This document shows, in pieces, positions 6,284 to 50,155 of a stretch of DNA of 64,000 bases. The translations under genes and the position numbers were made by a program. Numbering within the stretch: the first letter of the stretch is position 1; each line of letters starts with the position of its first letter. Source of the stretch: a virus (Duplodnaviria > Caudoviricetes); IMG/VR virus record IMGVR_UViG_3300013121_000027, positions 32,001 to 96,000 of that record, one strand, 5' to 3'. Below the pieces are notes generated by a model. It saw only the letters and a program-made list of their open reading frames with translations. It was not told where the DNA came from and searched no databases.

Positions 6284-6354
6284 CGGGCATTGGTATAGTG
6301 GTAAAACACTTGCTTTGGGAGCAAGAGTCACAGATTCGATTTCTGTATGCCCGA
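6284..6354 (+). tRNA. tRNA-Pro(TGG)
   Basis: CGGGCAT/ATGCCCG acceptor; CTTGC-TTTGGGA-GCAAG anticodon arm; ACAGA-TTCGATT-TCTGT T arm. Confidence 0.9.
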
Positions 6355-6357
6355 CTT

Positions 6358-12113: not shown

Positions 12114-12187
12114 CGCCACATAGCTTAAATCTGGTTAAAGCCCCATATTTTTGTTGGGAAGATATAGGTTCGAATCCTATTGTGGCA
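12114..12187 (+). pseudogene. tRNA-like sequence with a degenerate anticodon arm (isotype unclear)
   Basis: GCCACA/TGTGGC stem, GCTT/AAGC D arm, ATAGG-TTCGAAT-CCTAT T arm; anticodon arm CCCA-TATTTTTGT-TGGG is irregular. Confidence 0.6.
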
Positions 12188-12189
12188 CT

Positions 12190-30105: not shown

Positions 30106-30630
30106 TTGTTCCAATGTTGTATAAAGATGAGGCTAAGGCATATGAGTCAATCTCCGCTAATATTGCCTGAAGAACGAATCCAAGGTACTTATCCGGAATT
30201 TCAAAAAGAAATAAAACAACGTTCAATTGAATGTCAAATAGCATTAGATAATGATGCAGCTTGCCGACGACAAGGGCTTCATCCGTATTTTCTAAATCCA
30301 GCTAAAGCTCAATTTGTTATTCAAACTTTCTGTAAGGAATGTTTGGTTCGACAATATTGTTTAGATCTTGCCTTAATAGATCAAATAGAACCTGGAACTT
30401 GGGGTGGCTTTGATGAATTTTATAGAAAAGGAATTCTTACTGCCACAAGACGAGAATTTTGCGCTAAAAACCCAGACGTAAGTCCATCTATTCTTCCATC
30501 TCATCATCCTGATTTTTGGAATCTACTTCAGCTTAGATTTACTCAGGCTGCTAAAAGTCCTAAAAGACTTTATACCAAGCTTGGAATACCTCTTAGAAAA
30601 AGTAAAGATAAGAATTATTTAGCTCTTTAA
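30106..30630 (+). CDS. WhiB-family Fe-S transcription factor (true start probably ATG 30142)
   Basis: AAC...C..C.VR..CL..AL...GTWGG. Confidence 0.8.
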   Translation: MFQCCIKMRLRHMSQSPLILPEERIQGTYPEFQKEIKQRSIECQIALDNDAACRRQGLHPYFLNPAKAQFVIQTFCKECLVRQYCLDLALIDQIEPGTWGGFDEFYRKGILTATRREFCAKNPDVSPSILPSHHPDFWNLLQLRFTQAAKSPKRLYTKLGIPLRKSKDKNYLAL

Positions 30631-31348
30631 TACAATAAGATACGATACATAGTCATTTAACTTCAATCGAAAGACTCCATGTACGTGTCCTCAAATCAAT
30701 CATTATATAAGGCTATCTATTTTCAAATTTCGAAACATATTGATAATCTTACAGAAAAAATTTTCATCACTAATAATTTAAAATTTCTGGATTTACAAGT
30801 AACGCAACGACTCATAAGAGTTTTTACGTCTTTGTTATCTTTCTTGGCTACTTTGTATGAATTTGTATATTACTGCATTTCAATGCGATTTACCCAATTG
30901 ATTGTCTAACAACTTTTAAGGAGTTCTTCTGCATGTTTGACATTGAGAATATATCTACAGGCATTGACAAGCCGGTTGATCCAGCTGATAAAGATTTTAA
31001 GTTTTCTTTTCAAGTTGGATCTCATCCCGATTTTCTATCTCAAAAAATAGATTACCGCAATGCTTTAGCAAGTAGATTAGAGCGTTTGATCACGGAACCT
31101 ACTGTAGATGGTCATCCCTATATTCAATACTTGTTTAAAAATATTGAGCGTCCAACCTCAGAAGAACTCCTTATTTTATCTAAGGCTTTAGAACGTATTA
31201 GCCAACTTATTGAACCTTTTAGAAAGCTTGATGAAGAAGTAAAGGGATTGGTATGGGCAAGAGAAAATGCAAAGTTAGTTGCGTGTGCTTTTGGAGATTT
31301 TCCAGTCCCTGACATTCAAGATTTTCTTAACCCCTGAAATTATACTGT

Positions 31349-33055
31349 ATGAAATATGTAATAGATACCGAAAATAAAACCGTTATAGGTCCATTATCTA
31401 ATCTTGAAAAAGCTGCCGATACTTTTTCTTTTCCTGTTGCGAAACTAATTGAAAATGCATCTGCTCTTGCTCGAATTGAAACTGGTCTTCTTCCAGTCCA
31501 AGGCTCTGGACTCGTTTCTTATCGAGCAGCTGCTGAGCATGAACAAATTGTGATTCAATTAGAACCTGGTATTTATACTGTAAAATGGGGACAAAGAGAA
31601 CGCGATGTCAATGCTCAGCTTTTTAGCTTAGCAATGCCTTATCGTATAATTATTGCTGATTTTTATAAAAATGAATTTTTGGGTTCCCGTCATTTCTTTT
31701 CTATGACTCCAGCTTACTCTTGGGATCTTCAACTCTATGTAACTGGATTCTCCAATACAAATAATCTCGGCTATGCCGATACTTCTATTGGTTGGATTTG
31801 TCATTATCATAATAATGCGGGTAAAGAATGTAAAAATCTTAGTGAAAAGATTGACTATGTAATAGATCGTGAATCTGGATTAGGCGAGCCATATAACTAT
31901 AATAATATGAGCGAAACCGATGGTCCTAAATTCTATAGCAAGTTTATGCCCACTAAAACTCATTTTCATAATGCAAGTCATTGGGCGAATAAAACTTCTA
32001 AAGAGGGATTGGATTGGGTTTTCGATCCATCTAATTTTATTCCTTATTCTACTATTGCAACCGATGCTTTCGCCGCTAAAGAATATGTAGATCCTGCTCA
32101 AAAGGGAGCAAAACTATATACTCTTTATGATGCTACTCATAAGCAATATATACCTTATTATCCTCATAGAATTCCATATGCCAAAGAGTTAAAGCCATTC
32201 AATCAATCAATTACCGACATTAATCCTACTCCTTCTTTAACTTCTTTATTATTTACTTTAAAAAGAGATCCAGTAAAATTTGTTCCTCTTTTACAGCAAG
32301 AAGAATTTGGTATAGATATTGCTTCCTTTGAATTTTCCCAAAAAGCTCTTCAAATAAAAAATATTCTTGAAAGTAAAATCTGTCCTCACTGTAATAAAAT
32401 ATTCCCTCAAATGGAAAAATTTACTTCTGTTCTTGTCGGCATTGATACCGTTGAAAAAATAGTGACAGAAAGTGACATGTGGTGTACGCATTGTGTCGCT
32501 ACTTCAACTGCTCAAATCGATATTCATGGAGATACTTTTCCTGCATCTACAGATATATTGCTTTGGAGCGAGCACTATAGTCTATACTTCCTACCCTTTG
32601 ACATTACTGAATGTCCAGGTTGTGGAGAATGTCAGCCAAACAATATAGATACTTCTGACTTTTTTGTTTATGGATTGGATTTCGATAATCCCATTGGATG
32701 TGTTAACTGTCTATATTCTGAAGACGATGAAGCTCTTTATGTTTGGGATCCATTCATTAAAAAGTATTTCATTAACGAATTAGCAGTTGAAGTTCAAACT
32801 CTTCAGATGTTACCAGATCCTCAAACCTTAAAGATATCGGTTTGTCAAGCGCTACAACTTGTCCATCCTACAACCGCAGAACATATTTGTAATTGTGGCA
32901 TGTATATAGATGATCCACTTTCTAAGTGCGTAAGTAAAAAAAAAGAAGATAATTCTTTGACATGTGTCACGTGCGTGAATAAAGAACTTATATCTACAGG
33001 TCCACAAATCACTGAAGTTGTTTTAGATACCAAAGGAAAAACCATAGATGAATGA
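31349..33055 (+). CDS. E2-like (Prok-E2_D) domain fused to a Cys-rich multi-zinc-finger C-terminus
   Basis: LAMPYRIII...GFSN......GWICHY...YNYN, followed by several CxxC pairs; first gene of the JAB/E1/Ubl operon. Confidence 0.6.
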   Translation: MKYVIDTENKTVIGPLSNLEKAADTFSFPVAKLIENASALARIETGLLPVQGSGLVSYRAAAEHEQIVIQLEPGIYTVKWGQRERDVNAQLFSLAMPYRIIIADFYKNEFLGSRHFFSMTPAYSWDLQLYVTGFSNTNNLGYADTSIGWICHYHNNAGKECKNLSEKIDYVIDRESGLGEPYNYNNMSETDGPKFYSKFMPTKTHFHNASHWANKTSKEGLDWVFDPSNFIPYSTIATDAFAAKEYVDPAQKGAKLYTLYDATHKQYIPYYPHRIPYAKELKPFNQSITDINPTPSLTSLLFTLKRDPVKFVPLLQQEEFGIDIASFEFSQKALQIKNILESKICPHCNKIFPQMEKFTSVLVGIDTVEKIVTESDMWCTHCVATSTAQIDIHGDTFPASTDILLWSEHYSLYFLPFDITECPGCGECQPNNIDTSDFFVYGLDFDNPIGCVNCLYSEDDEALYVWDPFIKKYFINELAVEVQTLQMLPDPQTLKISVCQALQLVHPTTAEHICNCGMYIDDPLSKCVSKKKEDNSLTCVTCVNKELISTGPQITEVVLDTKGKTIDE

Positions 33056-34295
33056 GCAAGAGCTCCAAGAATTAGGCTATGTCAGGCACATAGGTCCTCT
33101 CCCCCTTTTCTGGGGTGCCGAGACTGACTCCATGAAAGATATTGAAGAAGCTGGATTCCAAGACTATTATCTTCTTGCTCAAGAAAAGATAGCTCTTCCT
33201 CCTCAGCAGGGTAAAGCTCAAGAATATGCGTATCGTCCTACCATATTTCTTATCACCAAAACTATCATGGGTCGGGCGGTGACACTTGCTGAACCTAAAG
33301 ATATTAATCTTTTTCAATCCACAAACGAAAGCGCTCAATACTTCATGCCCAAGATGCCTTGGGAAATGGTTCAAAAAATGGATGCGTTCTTTAGGTTAAC
33401 CTATAAGAAACATGGCTCTGAAGCTATTCTTGTTCTTACTTATGATATGGATTATGTAGGCACTGAGAATCCTTCTGCTGGATGGAATTGTATTGCTCCT
33501 AAGCAGAAGAATACCGCTGGTAACTGCGACTATGAACCCGATTCTATTCTTCAATATAAGAAAGATTCAGAACTCATCCTTGGCACTATTCACTCTCATC
33601 CAGAAATGAGTGCATACTTTTCCTCTACTGACCATAAGGATCAGGACGAATGGGACGGTATTCATATTACTCAAGCCTGGAAGGGCACCGGTCCTACCGA
33701 GTATTATATTGCTATGATATTAGGTGGACAACAATGGGTTCTTAAACCTGAACAGGTTTTTGATACTCCTCCTCTTCCTCAAGTTGACACAACTCAAGTT
33801 GAGACCTGGATGGAAAATGTAGAAAAAAAAGCCGTCCAGCCGGCACCGATGACTCAGTATGGCAAGACTTATGGTACCACGGGTACCTCTAATCCGCCAT
33901 TGAGCTTGGCTATGCCGTTGCCCACTCAAGGGTTTATGCCTGCTGATAAAGTACGTGCAATCAAGCTTCCAGCTAACGCTCCCGATCCAGAAACGACAGT
34001 TATCATTCCCGAATATCCCGCCTCTATTCTTACCGATACCGTTCTTCATAAGTGCCGCCTCTGCAACGCACCACTTCTTGCTCAGTGTGTTAATTCTCGT
34101 AGGTGTGTTGCTTGCACTGCCTTTATGTTGATTGAAGGTGAAAGCGTAAAGGATCTTGAAGATTATAGAAATAATGGCAAATGGTCCTATTCACTTTACA
34201 TTGATTTGGAAAAGTCTCCCAATCCTATTTCCATCTATTACTTGGATGAAACTTTCTCTGATGATCAAAGAATTGGTGCCTACCCAAAAGTTTAG
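33048..34295 (+). CDS. JAB/MPN metalloprotease (Ubl-processing or deconjugating) with a C-terminal Zn ribbon
   Basis: SEAI...GTIHSHPEMSAYFSSTDHKD matches E-HxH-x7-S-x2-D. Confidence 0.9.
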   Translation: MNEQELQELGYVRHIGPLPLFWGAETDSMKDIEEAGFQDYYLLAQEKIALPPQQGKAQEYAYRPTIFLITKTIMGRAVTLAEPKDINLFQSTNESAQYFMPKMPWEMVQKMDAFFRLTYKKHGSEAILVLTYDMDYVGTENPSAGWNCIAPKQKNTAGNCDYEPDSILQYKKDSELILGTIHSHPEMSAYFSSTDHKDQDEWDGIHITQAWKGTGPTEYYIAMILGGQQWVLKPEQVFDTPPLPQVDTTQVETWMENVEKKAVQPAPMTQYGKTYGTTGTSNPPLSLAMPLPTQGFMPADKVRAIKLPANAPDPETTVIIPEYPASILTDTVLHKCRLCNAPLLAQCVNSRRCVACTAFMLIEGESVKDLEDYRNNGKWSYSLYIDLEKSPNPISIYYLDETFSDDQRIGAYPKV

Positions 34296-34951
34296 GGGAC
34301 ACGGTTGCCCCCTTCGATCATAAAGATCGCCCTAGCCCTGCGTATAGGTTAATATCGTGTCCCGAATGCTATTCTGATTTTGATGATTATACCTACACAA
34401 CTGGCAAGCCTGTCTTAGCTGATCTTTGGTTCTGTACCTATTGTGGTTGCGGAGTTCAAGATTACTTCATTCTAGGAACTGAAGTCTGTTGGTTTGTAGA
34501 CAGTATTGATCTTATAGATGAATTTGAATTTCTTTATGAACCAATTTCTGCGATGACCCAATTGGATCTACAGAATTCGTTTACTTGTTTATGTTGCGAT
34601 CTTCCTATCGAAGATTGTCAAACTTATGGTCAACCCAGATTCAATATTTCTCAAATAAGCATTGAGGACTATATGATTGATCATCATATTATGCGCAGAG
34701 ATATTTATAATGAAAACTTTTCGGATTGCTGCACATGCCAGTTCTATATGACAGATGCTTGTGTTCCTTTAAGAAATATTATTCGTTTTTACCATCAAGC
34801 CAAAGTCATTCCATCCTTTAATTTAGTCGGATGTTATGATTATGAGCAAAATGATGATGCTGATGAATATCTTAACGCATTAAGTGATCAAAAATTTCAA
34901 TCAGAAAAAGAAAAAGATACAATTGTCTTGCCTAAAAAATATACACTTTAA
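34283..34951 (+). CDS. Cys-rich domain probably expressed by -1 frameshift from the JAB gene; extends track ORF 34553-34951
   Basis: Frame is open from 34265 with no ATG/GTG/TTG until 34553, yet encodes CPEC...CTYC; slippery C CCA AAA at 34283-34289. Confidence 0.65.
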   Translation, partial: PKSLGDTVAPFDHKDRPSPAYRLISCPECYSDFDDYTYTTGKPVLADLWFCTYCGCGVQDYFILGTEVCWFVDSIDLIDEFEFLYEPISAMTQLDLQNSFTCLCCDLPIEDCQTYGQPRFNISQISIEDYMIDHHIMRRDIYNENFSDCCTCQFYMTDACVPLRNIIRFYHQAKVIPSFNLVGCYDYEQNDDADEYLNALSDQKFQSEKEKDTIVLPKKYTL

Positions 34952-34959
34952 GGATACTA

Positions 34960-35754
34960 ATGGCTAATAACACTAAAAGGATGATCCTGATTGGCTGTGG
35001 AGGTACAGGAACATGGCTTGCCCATGGTCTTGCTAAATCTCTTCAGTTTCAAGCTCCAGGATCTGCTCTTCTTCTTATAGATGGCGATTCATTTGAACCT
35101 AAGAATGCAGAACGTCAACAGTTTTCACATACTGGTAATAAAGCTTACGTTTTAGCCGAAGATATTCAATATCAAAACCAAGCTATATTTGTTATCCCTC
35201 GTGCTGCCTGGATTGTATCTGCTGATGTTGAGGATCAAGTAGATGACGACGAAGCTGATGATGGTGCTGTTGTTGTTGCCCGTATTACTGCAGAATCTTT
35301 GCTTGAAGAGAACGATATTGTTTATGCCTGTGTAGATAACTATGCTGCCCGTAAGTTGATTTTTGATGCCGCAAAGAATCTCTCTAATATAGATGTCTTT
35401 ACTGGTGGCAATGATGAACATCTCTTTGGAACCGTCTATCATTACCGTCGTCGCGATGGACAAGATATAACTTTTCCTCCAGACTATTTCCATGATGAGT
35501 TTATTAATCCTGGAGATAAGAATCCTGGTGAACTCTCCTGCCAAGAAAGAGCAGAGCTTGATGGCGGAACTCAATTGCTCGCTGTAAATATGGCAGTTGC
35601 CTCTCATTTACTTGCCAAAACCGCTCATACGATTTTTGGTACTGAAAAAGAAAATAAGGCTGCCTTGGAAAAGGCAGAAATATACTTTGACCTTGAATTG
35701 GGTCTCTCTCAACCCTATGATCGCCGTCCAGCTTTGGTTGCTGTAACGGTTTAA
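34960..35754 (+). CDS. E1/ThiF-family ubiquitin-like activating enzyme
   Basis: GCGGTG; DGDSFEPKNAERQ; CVDNYAAR; candidate catalytic Cys in ELSCQER. Confidence 0.9.
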   Translation: MANNTKRMILIGCGGTGTWLAHGLAKSLQFQAPGSALLLIDGDSFEPKNAERQQFSHTGNKAYVLAEDIQYQNQAIFVIPRAAWIVSADVEDQVDDDEADDGAVVVARITAESLLEENDIVYACVDNYAARKLIFDAAKNLSNIDVFTGGNDEHLFGTVYHYRRRDGQDITFPPDYFHDEFINPGDKNPGELSCQERAELDGGTQLLAVNMAVASHLLAKTAHTIFGTEKENKAALEKAEIYFDLELGLSQPYDRRPALVAVTV

Positions 35755-35788
35755 TATATAAACACATACAATAAAGGATATATATAAC

Positions 35789-36043
35789 ATGACTACTGGT
35801 GAATCAGCAGCCGCAGCAAGCAGCCCAAGCTCTTCTGGCAAGGCAACTATTAAGTCTGGCGTTCGCGTTCAGCAAATCGAAGCGGGTCAGACTGTCGGAC
35901 AAGCCCGCGCTGAGTGGGCTACTCTGTTCCGCATTCCAACCGATGCGAAAGCTTACAGTGGTACCACTGAGCTGAGCGAAGATACTCAAATCACTCCTGA
36001 TATGAACGTTGAATTCATTAAGAAGAGTGGAGAGAAGGGCTGA
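35789..36043 (+). CDS. Ubiquitin-like (beta-grasp) modifier ending in ...EFIKKSGEKG
   Basis: Small; G.TV...R pattern; C-terminal GxKG as in PRTRC protein C-type Ubls; directly after E1. Confidence 0.8.
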   Translation: MTTGESAAAASSPSSSGKATIKSGVRVQQIEAGQTVGQARAEWATLFRIPTDAKAYSGTTELSEDTQITPDMNVEFIKKSGEKG

Positions 36044-36069
36044 TTTAAGCCCTAAAGACCTTCGGATCC

Positions 36070-36120
36070 TTTCTCCCTGTTGTCGAGCGTTGTATCAATG
36101 GCTTGACTTCGGGGAGAGGG
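36070..36120 (+). terminator. Long hairpin after the Ubl gene
   Basis: TTTCTCCCTG..GTCGAGC pairs with GCTTGAC..CGGGGAGAG. Confidence 0.5.
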
Positions 36121-36130
36121 ATCTGATACA

Positions 36131-36661
36131 ATGCCTTCTATGGCATTGAATTACACTATCCAAACATTAACGGAAGCTCTTGAATCTATTCTTGGACCTG
36201 AGGCGGCGGCTTTAGTAGCAAGAATAAATGAACTTCCAGGTTCTCACAAGTCTCCTTTTATCGCTTTACCTACAGATATCTCTTCTATTGATGAGATAAC
36301 TCGGCTTATTGCGAAAACTTCAAATGAGTATGGACAAGCTTGTAGGTTAGCTGGTCTTGCCAGAGCTCAATATAAAATAGCCGAAGCTTCTTATAAGTAT
36401 AAGTTTAGAACTTCTATCGGAATGGGAAAGAACTCTTCCGAAAGAGAGTCTAAAGCTTATGCTGCTGCCCAAGCTGAGTACGATAAGATGGTTGTGCTTG
36501 AGGCTATTGTACAGCTTTGTGAATCTATTGAGTCCGCTACTCGTATAGCTTCTGAGTCTTCACGCAGAATGCTGTTAGCAGCTGATCAATCGCAAAAAGC
36601 AGATAGTAGATTTGAGCATTCAGCATCATCCCTATCTGATAAAGACTTCTCTGTCGTATGA
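36131..36661 (+). CDS. Helical/coiled-coil hypothetical protein
   Basis: Ala/Glu-rich ORF between the Ubl and the AAA ATPase. Confidence 0.6.
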   Translation: MPSMALNYTIQTLTEALESILGPEAAALVARINELPGSHKSPFIALPTDISSIDEITRLIAKTSNEYGQACRLAGLARAQYKIAEASYKYKFRTSIGMGKNSSERESKAYAAAQAEYDKMVVLEAIVQLCESIESATRIASESSRRMLLAADQSQKADSRFEHSASSLSDKDFSVV

Positions 36662-36933
36662 TGACACAAAAAATTGGTTTTTATTATTCTCTTAATGAAA
36701 ATTGTCCTCATATCTTTTCTACAGTCTTTGTAGAAGACACCTTTACTTTTCCCTATTCTTTAATTAGGGATTGTTTTTCTTGCAATAAAACTCATTCGTT
36801 TAAATATTCATCTTCCTACTTAGTGAATACTCCACGTCAAAGAGCTTTAATGCAAACTTATTCGAAAAAAATAGGCGTTATTGAAGAGAACGTCATAGTC
36901 TAATTATAAAATACAATACCGATAAGGGATAAA

Positions 36934-38547
36934 ATGTCGTCTTTAGTTGACTCTTTGTCAAATCGTACTCCTATTGTCTGGGTTAATACATTGGAACCCG
37001 AAAGGGCTATTGCAGCTATCCCTTCTTTGAAGTCTGATGCAAGACCTCTCTATGTTTATGATGAATTCTCAGGTCTAATGGTTTGGGATCAAGACAAGGA
37101 CACTTGGAAAGTTGTCTTGGTTGAAATTAAGGATCCCGATACAGGTGAAGTAGTCCAAAAGCCAGTCTTTGGTTCTCAACAAGCCTTTGGTTATATCCTT
37201 AACCAGGATCCAAGTATTTATATAGTTCGTAATGCTCATAAAGATATTGATAACCACTTAACTTTATTCTCTGTTTTGTATAATCGTTATCGTTCAACGT
37301 TCTTTTCTGATGACTTGGATAAGCTCCCTACTCAAGTTATTTGCTTTGCGGCAAATGAGCCAGCGCCACCCGAAATCTCTTCAATGACTACAACTGCTGC
37401 ATGGGGATATCCGACTCCCCTTGAGCTTCGCACTATTATAACTAATATTCGTCAGAACTATAAAGACGACGTTGCTTCTGATGAAGATCTTGATGAGCTT
37501 GTCAAGTCTTCAGTCGGTCTTACTGAGCACGATGCTATTGAAGTCTATCTTTCTTCTATTCGTTCTCATGGCACCATTGACAAAAAGACTCTTCGTTCTT
37601 TGCGTCTGGAGCGTCTCAAGGCTATGTCCAATCTTGAAGTGGATGAGCCAAAGGTTCAGCTTTCTGATATTGGTGGTCTTGACAATGCTAAGAAGCTTAT
37701 TCAGCGTGCGGCATGGATTTGGCAGAATCCTGAAGAGGCTGCTAAATACAAGCTTGTTCCTCTTCGTCGCATTCTTCTTCTTGGTCTTTCTGGCTGTGGT
37801 AAATCCTACCTTTGCGAGGGTGCAGCCAGCGCTCTTGGTCTTCAGCTCGCCAAAGGTGGCGTCTCCAAGGCTATGAATAAGTTCATTGGTCAATCAGAGG
37901 CAAATATTACTGCCATGTTTGATCAGATCAATGCAATGTCTCCAATTACTCTTTGGATTGATGAAATTGGTCGTGATCTTTCTGGTGGTGGCTCTTCTAA
38001 CTATACCGATGGTGGCACTACTTCTCGTGTTCATGGATTGTTCTTGACTAAGATGCAAGAGCTCAATAAGGATGTATTTGTTTTTGCGGCTGCCAATAAC
38101 ATTGAATCTTTGGCTCCTGAGATGCTTCGTGCCGACCGCTTTGACAAACTCTTCTTCGTTGGCTTCCCGTCCTATGAAGAACGTCGTGATATCTTTGCCC
38201 TTCATCTCCCCAGAGATGCACAGTTTGATCTTGATGAGTTGGCAAGTCATACTCCGTGTTTTACTGGTGCAGAAATAAAAGCTCTTATTGAGCGTACTAT
38301 TTTTGATATTTCTCCACAATATAACCGTACTATTACCACAGAGGATTTAGTTAAAACTATTCCTTATCAGAAAAACCGTATTTGGATTCGTCATCGTAAT
38401 CTTGCTGTCAATATGTACTCCAGTGCCTTCAACGAATATGAATGGGCTTCTACCTCTCAGTATGGTGAAGCTCAGTTTATTATGAAGGGCGTTGAACCAA
38501 AACAAGGCATCACTGTTAATGCGGGGATGAGTCTTAATCTTAAGTAA
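36934..38547 (+). CDS. AAA+ ATPase (Ycf46/SpoVK-like)
   Basis: DIGGL; Walker A GLSGCGKS; Walker B LWIDE; AANN...PEMLRADRFD second region of homology. Confidence 0.9.
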   Translation: MSSLVDSLSNRTPIVWVNTLEPERAIAAIPSLKSDARPLYVYDEFSGLMVWDQDKDTWKVVLVEIKDPDTGEVVQKPVFGSQQAFGYILNQDPSIYIVRNAHKDIDNHLTLFSVLYNRYRSTFFSDDLDKLPTQVICFAANEPAPPEISSMTTTAAWGYPTPLELRTIITNIRQNYKDDVASDEDLDELVKSSVGLTEHDAIEVYLSSIRSHGTIDKKTLRSLRLERLKAMSNLEVDEPKVQLSDIGGLDNAKKLIQRAAWIWQNPEEAAKYKLVPLRRILLLGLSGCGKSYLCEGAASALGLQLAKGGVSKAMNKFIGQSEANITAMFDQINAMSPITLWIDEIGRDLSGGGSSNYTDGGTTSRVHGLFLTKMQELNKDVFVFAAANNIESLAPEMLRADRFDKLFFVGFPSYEERRDIFALHLPRDAQFDLDELASHTPCFTGAEIKALIERTIFDISPQYNRTITTEDLVKTIPYQKNRIWIRHRNLAVNMYSSAFNEYEWASTSQYGEAQFIMKGVEPKQGITVNAGMSLNLK

Positions 38548-50081: not shown

Positions 50082-50155
50082 GGTTTCATAGTTCAATGTA
50101 GAACGACATCCTCTAAAGATGTGCGTTGCGGGTTCAAGTCCCGCTGAAACCTCCA
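50082..50155 (+). tRNA. Amber suppressor tRNA (anticodon CTA) with encoded CCA
   Basis: GGTTTCA/TGAAACC-T-CCA; GTTC-AATGTA-GAAC; ACATC-CTCTAAA-GATGT; GCGGG-TTCAAGT-CCCGC. Confidence 0.9.

Follow-up and report, generated by a model that had tools for sequence, protein, structure and literature searches.

How is a Cys-rich domain translated when its reading frame opens inside the end of an upstream gene, in another register, and offers no start codon for some 96 codons? The question is raised by a phage gene for a deubiquitinase-like JAB/JAMM peptidase in virus record IMGVR_UViG_3300013121_000027, of which we analyzed a stretch of 64,000 nucleotides (nt), bases 32001–96000 of the record (here called the window). 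An earlier note on this DNA had proposed that a programmed -1 frameshift fuses JAB to the Cys-rich domain and yields two isoforms. Comparison across related loci supports that reading, and we consider it very likely that the 3' end of the JAB gene carries a programmed -1 ribosomal frameshift cassette.

The JAB gene and the elements of the proposed cassette are, in order of position:

33048–34295, + strand: JAB/JAMM (MPN+) peptidase (Pfam PF14464), the 0-frame open reading frame (ORF) of 415 amino acids (aa), ending ...GAYPKV-TAG.

34283–34289, + strand: slippery heptamer C_CCA_AAA, an X_XXY_YYZ motif in the register of the JAB frame.

34289–34951, + strand: predicted reading in the -1 frame after the slip, 220 codons (SLGDTV...KKYTL) and TAA, comprising a linker with R-x-S-P, a putative C4 zinc ribbon and a further Cys-rich domain.

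34290–34295, + strand: spacer GTTTAG, 6 nt, containing the 0-frame stop TAG (34293–34295).

34296–34305, + strand: 5' arm of the predicted stem, GGGACACGGT, in the minimum-energy and centroid folds.

34315–34329, + strand: small internal hairpin CGATC-ATAAA-GATCG, predicted within the 48-nt loop of the stem in the minimum-energy and centroid folds.

34354–34363, + strand: 3' arm of the stem, ATCGTGTCCC, in the same folds, overlapping the Ser-Cys-Pro codons of the CPEC motif.

The layout described in the earlier note was recovered from the letters. JAB does end TAC CCA AAA GTT TAG, and the canonical heptamer claimed for 34283–34289 lies in register with the JAB frame. The -1 frame opens at 34265, as proposed, and stays open to 34951 (228 codons); its first ATG, GTG or TTG is at 34553, which bears out the run of about 96 start-free codons, and it encodes CPEC (34358–34369) and CTYC (34433–34444). 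The GGGGACACG said to begin five nt past the heptamer starts at 34295. The two isoforms, put at 415 and about 635 aa, are predicted here at 415 and 634 aa (414 + 220). By reading, the ATG at 34553 has no Shine-Dalgarno sequence, whereas the starts of JAB and of the next gene, a ThiF/E1-like adenylyltransferase, have AAGGA. No promoter-like or terminator-like site was found on the + strand of the linker.

On this layout, most ribosomes would read ...Tyr-Pro-Lys-Val and stop at TAG, releasing the 415-aa JAB. Some would be held up by the stem 6 nt downstream, which would resist unwinding, at the moment when CCA is occupied by tRNA-Pro and AAA by tRNA-Lys; the two tRNAs could then re-pair one base upstream, on CCC_AAA, and decoding would resume in the -1 frame at AGT (34289). 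The resulting 634-aa product would consist of JAB, the linker with RxSP, the putative C4 zinc ribbon and a Cys-rich domain of about 150 aa. We infer from the comparison of loci set out below that such slippage would actually occur. The window contains 17 tRNA genes as predicted by ARAGORN, among them tRNA-Pro(UGG) and tRNA-Lys(UUU), at 6284–6355 and 12114–12188; the slippery codons CCA and AAA are those decoded by these two phage-encoded tRNAs, which may be a coincidence.

We compared the junction DNA of the window with that of eleven distinct loci of relatives from different samples, taken from ENA, JGI and Logan (L002, L003, L007, L008, which is the same as L009, L010, L011, L012, L013, L014, L015 and L016); a thirteenth locus contributed gene coordinates only. 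Among the twelve loci, identity goes down to 37% in JAB and is 20–35% in the Cys-rich domain. The downstream gene lies in the -1 frame relative to JAB at 13 of 13 loci. At all twelve loci with junction DNA, JAB ends in nnC CCA AAA with a stop 0 or 1 codon later, and the downstream -1 frame is open from the heptamer onward. Conservation of the heptamer in homologs, which the earlier note had suggested checking, is therefore complete across these diverged loci.

This conservation reaches the synonymous positions. The codon before CCA is TAC, TTC, TTC, TCC, TCC, GAC, GTC, CCC, GCC, GTC, GAC and GAC at the twelve loci; the residue before Pro-Lys varies (Y/F/S/D/V/P/A), while the wobble C is constant in 12 of 12. 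The aligned JAB tails vary throughout except at Pro413 and Lys414, which are invariant. Given Pro-Lys, the joint probability of CCA, AAA and the wobble C is about 1e-15, calculated from each gene's own codon usage at the nine loci with a JAB ORF of more than 100 codons, treated as independent. Judged by these alignments, heptamer conservation exceeds chance, synonymous positions included. The heptamer is also of a plausible kind: in Escherichia coli, C_CC.A_AA.G was the most efficient one, reaching 54% when combined with the IS3 pseudoknot, and C_CC.A_AA.A appears in a list of motifs whose frameshifting exceeds 0.1% even in the absence of a stimulator (PMC4066793).

The linker tells a similar story. 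Between the heptamer and the first CxxC, the -1 frame contains no stop in 281 codons summed over eleven loci, against 24 and 23 stops in the other two frames. The distance from heptamer to CxxC is 25 codons at nine of these eleven loci and 27 and 29 at the remaining two, and L016 shows the same linker pattern as the eleven that were counted. The recurring peptide is PK-x3-G-x-T-x2-(E/Q)R-x3-R-x-S-P-x6-C-P-x-C, and the CPxC...CxxC motif is conserved in the N-terminal part of the extension. At four loci (L002, L003, L014 and L015) a -1-frame stop lies 0–1 codon upstream of the heptamer and a 0-frame stop 0–1 codon downstream, so that the two frames can be joined at the heptamer alone. At five others (the window, L007, L008, L010 and L016) no ATG, GTG or TTG precedes the conserved RxSP...CPxC motif. 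The first zinc knuckle could therefore be made there only by read-in from JAB, and since the zinc-ribbon half has no start of its own in this phage and these four relatives, frameshifting would be the only route to the complete domain. At L007 (3180–3266), the -1 product and its close homolog P0015 cease to match about 30 codons short of the contig end, where the contig is probably of low quality.

A candidate stimulatory structure lies where one would be expected to act, 5–9 nt past the heptamer. The fold of 34290–34370 has a predicted energy of -23.9 kcal/mol and contains, in both the minimum-energy and the centroid structure, a stem of ten consecutive pairs (one of them G-U) that starts 6 nt past the heptamer. 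The earlier note had offered two pairings for this region. The long-range one, GGGACACG with CGTGTCCC (34356–34363), stands: it is present in the minimum-energy fold and has co-varying counterparts in relatives. The local GGGG/CCCC hairpin (GCCCC at 34307–34311) does not; with only 4 base pairs, it is in competition with the long stem and occurs in neither fold.

In the relatives, RNAfold places a stem 5' arm (GGG...) 6–8 nt past the heptamer, so that an arm in this position is seen at 11 of the 12 loci. The 3' arm falls on Ser/Asn-Pro codons at seven loci (L007, L008, L010 and L012–L015) and on x-Cys-Pro/Phe codons in the window, L003, L011 and probably L016. The arms differ in sequence, as in GGGCTACG/CGTAGCCC (L010), GGGTTTCG/CGAAACCC (L013), GGGCTGCGG/CCGTAGCCC (L008) and GGCACTG/CAGTGCC (L003). 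Because MAFFT failed to register the helices, we used a test of self versus cross duplex energies, in which the optimal duplex was computed for every 5' region against every 3' region, a design chosen against selection bias. Self duplexes averaged -15.0 kcal/mol and cross duplexes -11.9 kcal/mol (permutation p = 0.0005). The 5' arm of the window formed its own duplex at -19.9 kcal/mol, the best value in its row and column of the matrix. Counted from the flush end, 36 of 50 cells at helix positions 4–8 were paired, compared to 22.3 with permuted arms, a count that is biased and descriptive only because each helix came from its own fold; several Watson-Crick pair types occur at positions 4–6. 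A search of Rfam found no family at the site.

Several observations weigh against programmed frameshifting. Its support is entirely comparative. The fold of the window is only modestly better than its dinucleotide shuffles (z = -1.74); across eleven loci the RNAfold z-scores range from -0.45 to -2.5, except for L002 at +1.0, and L002 has no convincing stem. The position of the 3' arm is not fixed, and there is therefore no single unbiased column alignment on which structure could be tested. The A-site codon of the heptamer is AAA, which in Escherichia coli is less slippery than AAG. Finally, the linker of seven loci contains an ATG or TTG, from which a stand-alone product could also be made, and in the window a near-cognate but rare ATA lies at 34352–34354, two codons ahead of CPEC.

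These potential starts lead to the strongest of the competing explanations, namely that JAB and the Cys-rich protein are two ordinary adjacent genes, the second self-started from an ATG or TTG, or from a non-canonical codon such as the ATA of the window, and that CCCAAAA reflects a conserved Pro-Lys C-terminus. Gene callers do give stand-alone proteins of 178–211 aa. An ATG stands three codons ahead of CPxC in L002 and L003, an ATG or TTG occurs in the linker of L012–L015, and the ATA of the window stands two codons before the Cys. We nevertheless regard this explanation as improbable. A conserved Pro-Lys would leave unexplained the invariance of the synonymous positions of the heptamer at all twelve loci, and adjacency as such the -1 relation at all thirteen. 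The candidate starts vary in position between loci and most lack a Shine-Dalgarno sequence (by reading), while the peptide encoded upstream of them (G.T..ER...RxSP) is conserved, fixed in length and free of stops. At five loci no canonical start precedes the motif at all. A non-canonical start of the downstream frame, the objection that the earlier note had raised to its own reading, is likewise at odds with these five loci and with the conserved fixed-length peptide that runs from the heptamer on.

A different recoding route, either slippage of RNA polymerase on the A-run or termination and reinitiation at the JAB stop, appears less probable still. The heptamer does include AAAA, and the JAB stop is 0–1 codon from the site. 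Productive transcriptional slippage, however, needs runs of about seven or more A's, of which four fall far short, and reinitiation needs a start near the stop, where the window has none for 86 codons. The geometry of spacer and stem and the X_XXY_YYZ register specifically fit ribosomal -1 slippage.

That JAB and the Cys-rich domain are truly one in-frame gene, broken by a sequencing or assembly indel or by a recent pseudogenizing frameshift, has almost nothing left to recommend it: one missing base near 34290 would fuse the frames, and the window is a metagenomic virus record, but twelve independent assemblies break the frame at the same heptamer with differing stop codons, a shared two-frame layout that excludes an assembly indel, and no in-frame fused homolog was found among the JAB homologs or among 1.8 billion representative proteins. 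The in-frame fusions that the earlier note had named as a counter-example are thus not what homologs look like. Ten JAB homologs were found, with identities of 37–63%, and all are 412–422 aa long although the search covered 228–727 aa; calls of the Cys-rich relatives are 92–211 aa long.

We also considered amber read-through of the JAB TAG. In the 0 frame a TAA follows after just 18 more residues, so that read-through would never arrive at the Cys-rich frame, and this candidate was rejected. ARAGORN predicts a tRNA with the amber-reading anticodon CUA at 50082–50155. The 0-frame stop of JAB is TAG at six of the twelve loci, including all four in which the stop directly follows the heptamer.

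With programmed -1 frameshifting as the preferred reading, we turn to the two proteins that it would join. JAB passes the Pfam profile PF14464 (Prok-JAB) at 30.4 bits, with a cut-off of 25. Its metal-site motif, E...HxHx7SxxD, is intact, and E125, H182, H184, S192 and D195 are invariant in the ten homologs. So are C336, C339, C353 and C356, which form a C-terminal C4 zinc knuckle of JAB itself (CxxC...CxxC, residues 336–356, 34053–34118). Counting the putative zinc ribbon of the extension as well, there would be two or more zinc ribbons in the long isoform. NCBIfam profiles of the PRTRC system scored far below their cut-offs (TIGR03735 PRTRC_A, 20.1 versus 101.8 bits; TIGR03736 PRTRC_ThiF, 34.7 versus 144.75 bits); the likeness of JAB and ThiF to that system is a distant resemblance and not membership. 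A scan of IMG/VR with the JAB alignment returned no relatives beyond the phage's own record. A metagenome scan returned three distant JAB relatives, with 28–36% identity over a part of the protein. One distant relative, L005, has a shorter JAB (287 aa) that overlaps the next gene, a different architecture, and was not used.

The extension resembles zinc-binding domains only weakly. TFIIE and L37Ae ribbon profiles match it at E-values of 0.05–0.1, and Pfam Rubredoxin is matched by two members of its family (1.9e-5); searches of Pfam, NCBIfam and PHROGs assigned the Cys-rich frame to no family. In the numbering of the 228-residue -1 frame, the conserved features are CLCCD, C118, CxxC, C-[IV]-P-L-R-N and C190. 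An AlphaFold2 (AF2) model of the extension built from 18 sequences was poor (pLDDT, the model's confidence score, 58.9), and a Foldseek search of the Protein Data Bank with this poor model gave nothing at E ≤ 0.001.

A filter-free search of the 1.8 billion representatives with the 228-aa -1 frame retrieved 17 proteins, all within the 92–211 aa given above except for one weak match, a 37-residue stretch of a 1366-aa protein. The sole record of this ORF from the present genome is a 92-aa call from an internal Met (P0011, 34673–34951), so that over half of the domain goes unannotated. Among the relatives, about half of the calls likewise start past the first zinc knuckle. The Cys-rich family is systematically mis-annotated, and a frameshift would explain why the zinc-ribbon half of the downstream protein is cut short or overlooked by gene callers. 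For the JAB family, it suggests a simple annotation rule, which is to join the two frames at C_CCA_AAA.

The genomic setting offers a context for such a fusion. The source virus record is 231,459 base pairs long, carries direct terminal repeats and has an estimated completeness of 100%, and it therefore represents a jumbo phage. Its G+C content is about 33–44%. The genes around JAB are all on the + strand and closely packed:

31349–33055, + strand: 568-aa protein.

34960–35754, + strand: ThiF/E1-like adenylyltransferase, the next gene after the Cys-rich frame (Pfam PF00899, 1.8e-13), with its own AAGGA ribosome-binding site.

Downstream of ThiF/E1, + strand: 84-aa protein with the C-terminus ...SGEKG.

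After the 84-aa protein, + strand: two small proteins of about 175 and about 81 aa.

36934–38547, + strand: CDC48/PAN-like AAA ATPase.

In relatives, ThiF/E1 is syntenic with JAB and the Cys-rich frame, and the gene order of the window is repeated with a WhiB-like gene in front. The module that spans 30106–38547 is kept in L002, L008, L010, L012 and L016. It comprises the WhiB-like gene, two small proteins, a protein of about 560 aa, JAB, the Cys-rich frame, ThiF/E1, a Gly-ending protein of about 84 aa, the proteins of about 175 and about 81 aa, and the CDC48/PAN-like AAA ATPase. It looks like a complete phage-carried pathway of the ubiquitin-like (Ubl) type. A PHROGs search gave no family for JAB or ThiF either, and blastn of 33000–36000 against GenBank phages gave no match.

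By analogy with the bacterial BubCD protein, a JAB–E1 fusion discussed below, we infer that the extension may target or tether JAB within the phage Ubl-like conjugation module, for example to the neighboring E1. A bolder proposal, which we hold to be rather unlikely, is that the frameshift serves as a regulatory valve in phage Ubl-like conjugation, setting the proportion of free JAB to a tethered form, joined to an E3-like domain or zinc-binding adaptor that would exist solely as a trans-frame product, and perhaps shifting that ratio during infection. Such a shift could act through the phage tRNA-Pro(UGG) and tRNA-Lys(UUU).

Full-text literature searches turned up no published report of frameshifting for JAB genes or Ubl operons. 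Programmed -1 frameshifting is a known type of recoding, placed here in a gene family and pathway for which we found no such report. Few phage or bacterial cases are well supported outside tail chaperones, insertion sequence (IS) transposases and dnaX, and the comparative support for the JAB case is unusually clean. If it operates as proposed, it would add translational control to a phage-borne JAB/E1/Ubl-like module, of a kind so far studied as bacterial anti-phage defense. The site also forms a compact cassette for experimental test.

How does the proposed JAB frameshift compare with known systems? In phage lambda gpG/gpGT and its analogues in other tailed phages, -1 frameshifting is conserved across diverged phages as an arrangement, not as a sequence. 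The JAB site shares with lambda an X_XXY_YYZ slip a few codons before the upstream stop, which would yield a shorter protein alongside a fusion lengthened at the C-terminus. It differs in gene family and role, the lambda gene specifying a tail chaperone and the gene studied here a JAB peptidase of a Ubl-like module. The heptamers are also different (G_GGA_AAG in lambda, C_CCA_AAA here), and the JAB site has a co-varying downstream stem and an extension made up of a putative zinc ribbon and a Cys-rich domain.

Close mechanistic parallels are OrfAB of IS3 and IS911 and Escherichia coli dnaX, which likewise combine a heptamer, a spacer of about 6 nt and a stimulator in the form of a stem-loop or pseudoknot. 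The JAB heptamer falls in the X_XXA_AAN class, for which measurements exist in Escherichia coli (PMC4066793). As in IS3/IS911, two ORFs would be fused, whereas the dnaX shift truncates its product and the JAB shift would extend it. Unlike in IS3/IS911 and dnaX, the A-site codon is AAA and not AAG, and no upstream Shine-Dalgarno-like stimulator was identified at the JAB site. The loop of the JAB stem is also unusually long (22–56 nt) and lies within coding sequence, with its 3' arm on the conserved Ser-Pro or Cys-Pro codons.

At the level of the pathway, the nearest relatives are bacterial. The Type I Bub protein BubCD is a JAB–E1 fusion (PMC11601596). The phage arrangement resembles BubCD and other bacterial Ubl operons (Bil and PRTRC) in that a JAB/JAMM peptidase would be covalently joined to an E1/Ubl-pathway module, in a gene that adjoins ThiF/E1 (PMC11601596). 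In contrast to BubCD, the fused partner would be an uncharacterized Cys-rich domain and not the E1, and the module is encoded by a phage. BubCD, Bil and PRTRC are plain gene fusions, whereas the join proposed here would be translational and partial.

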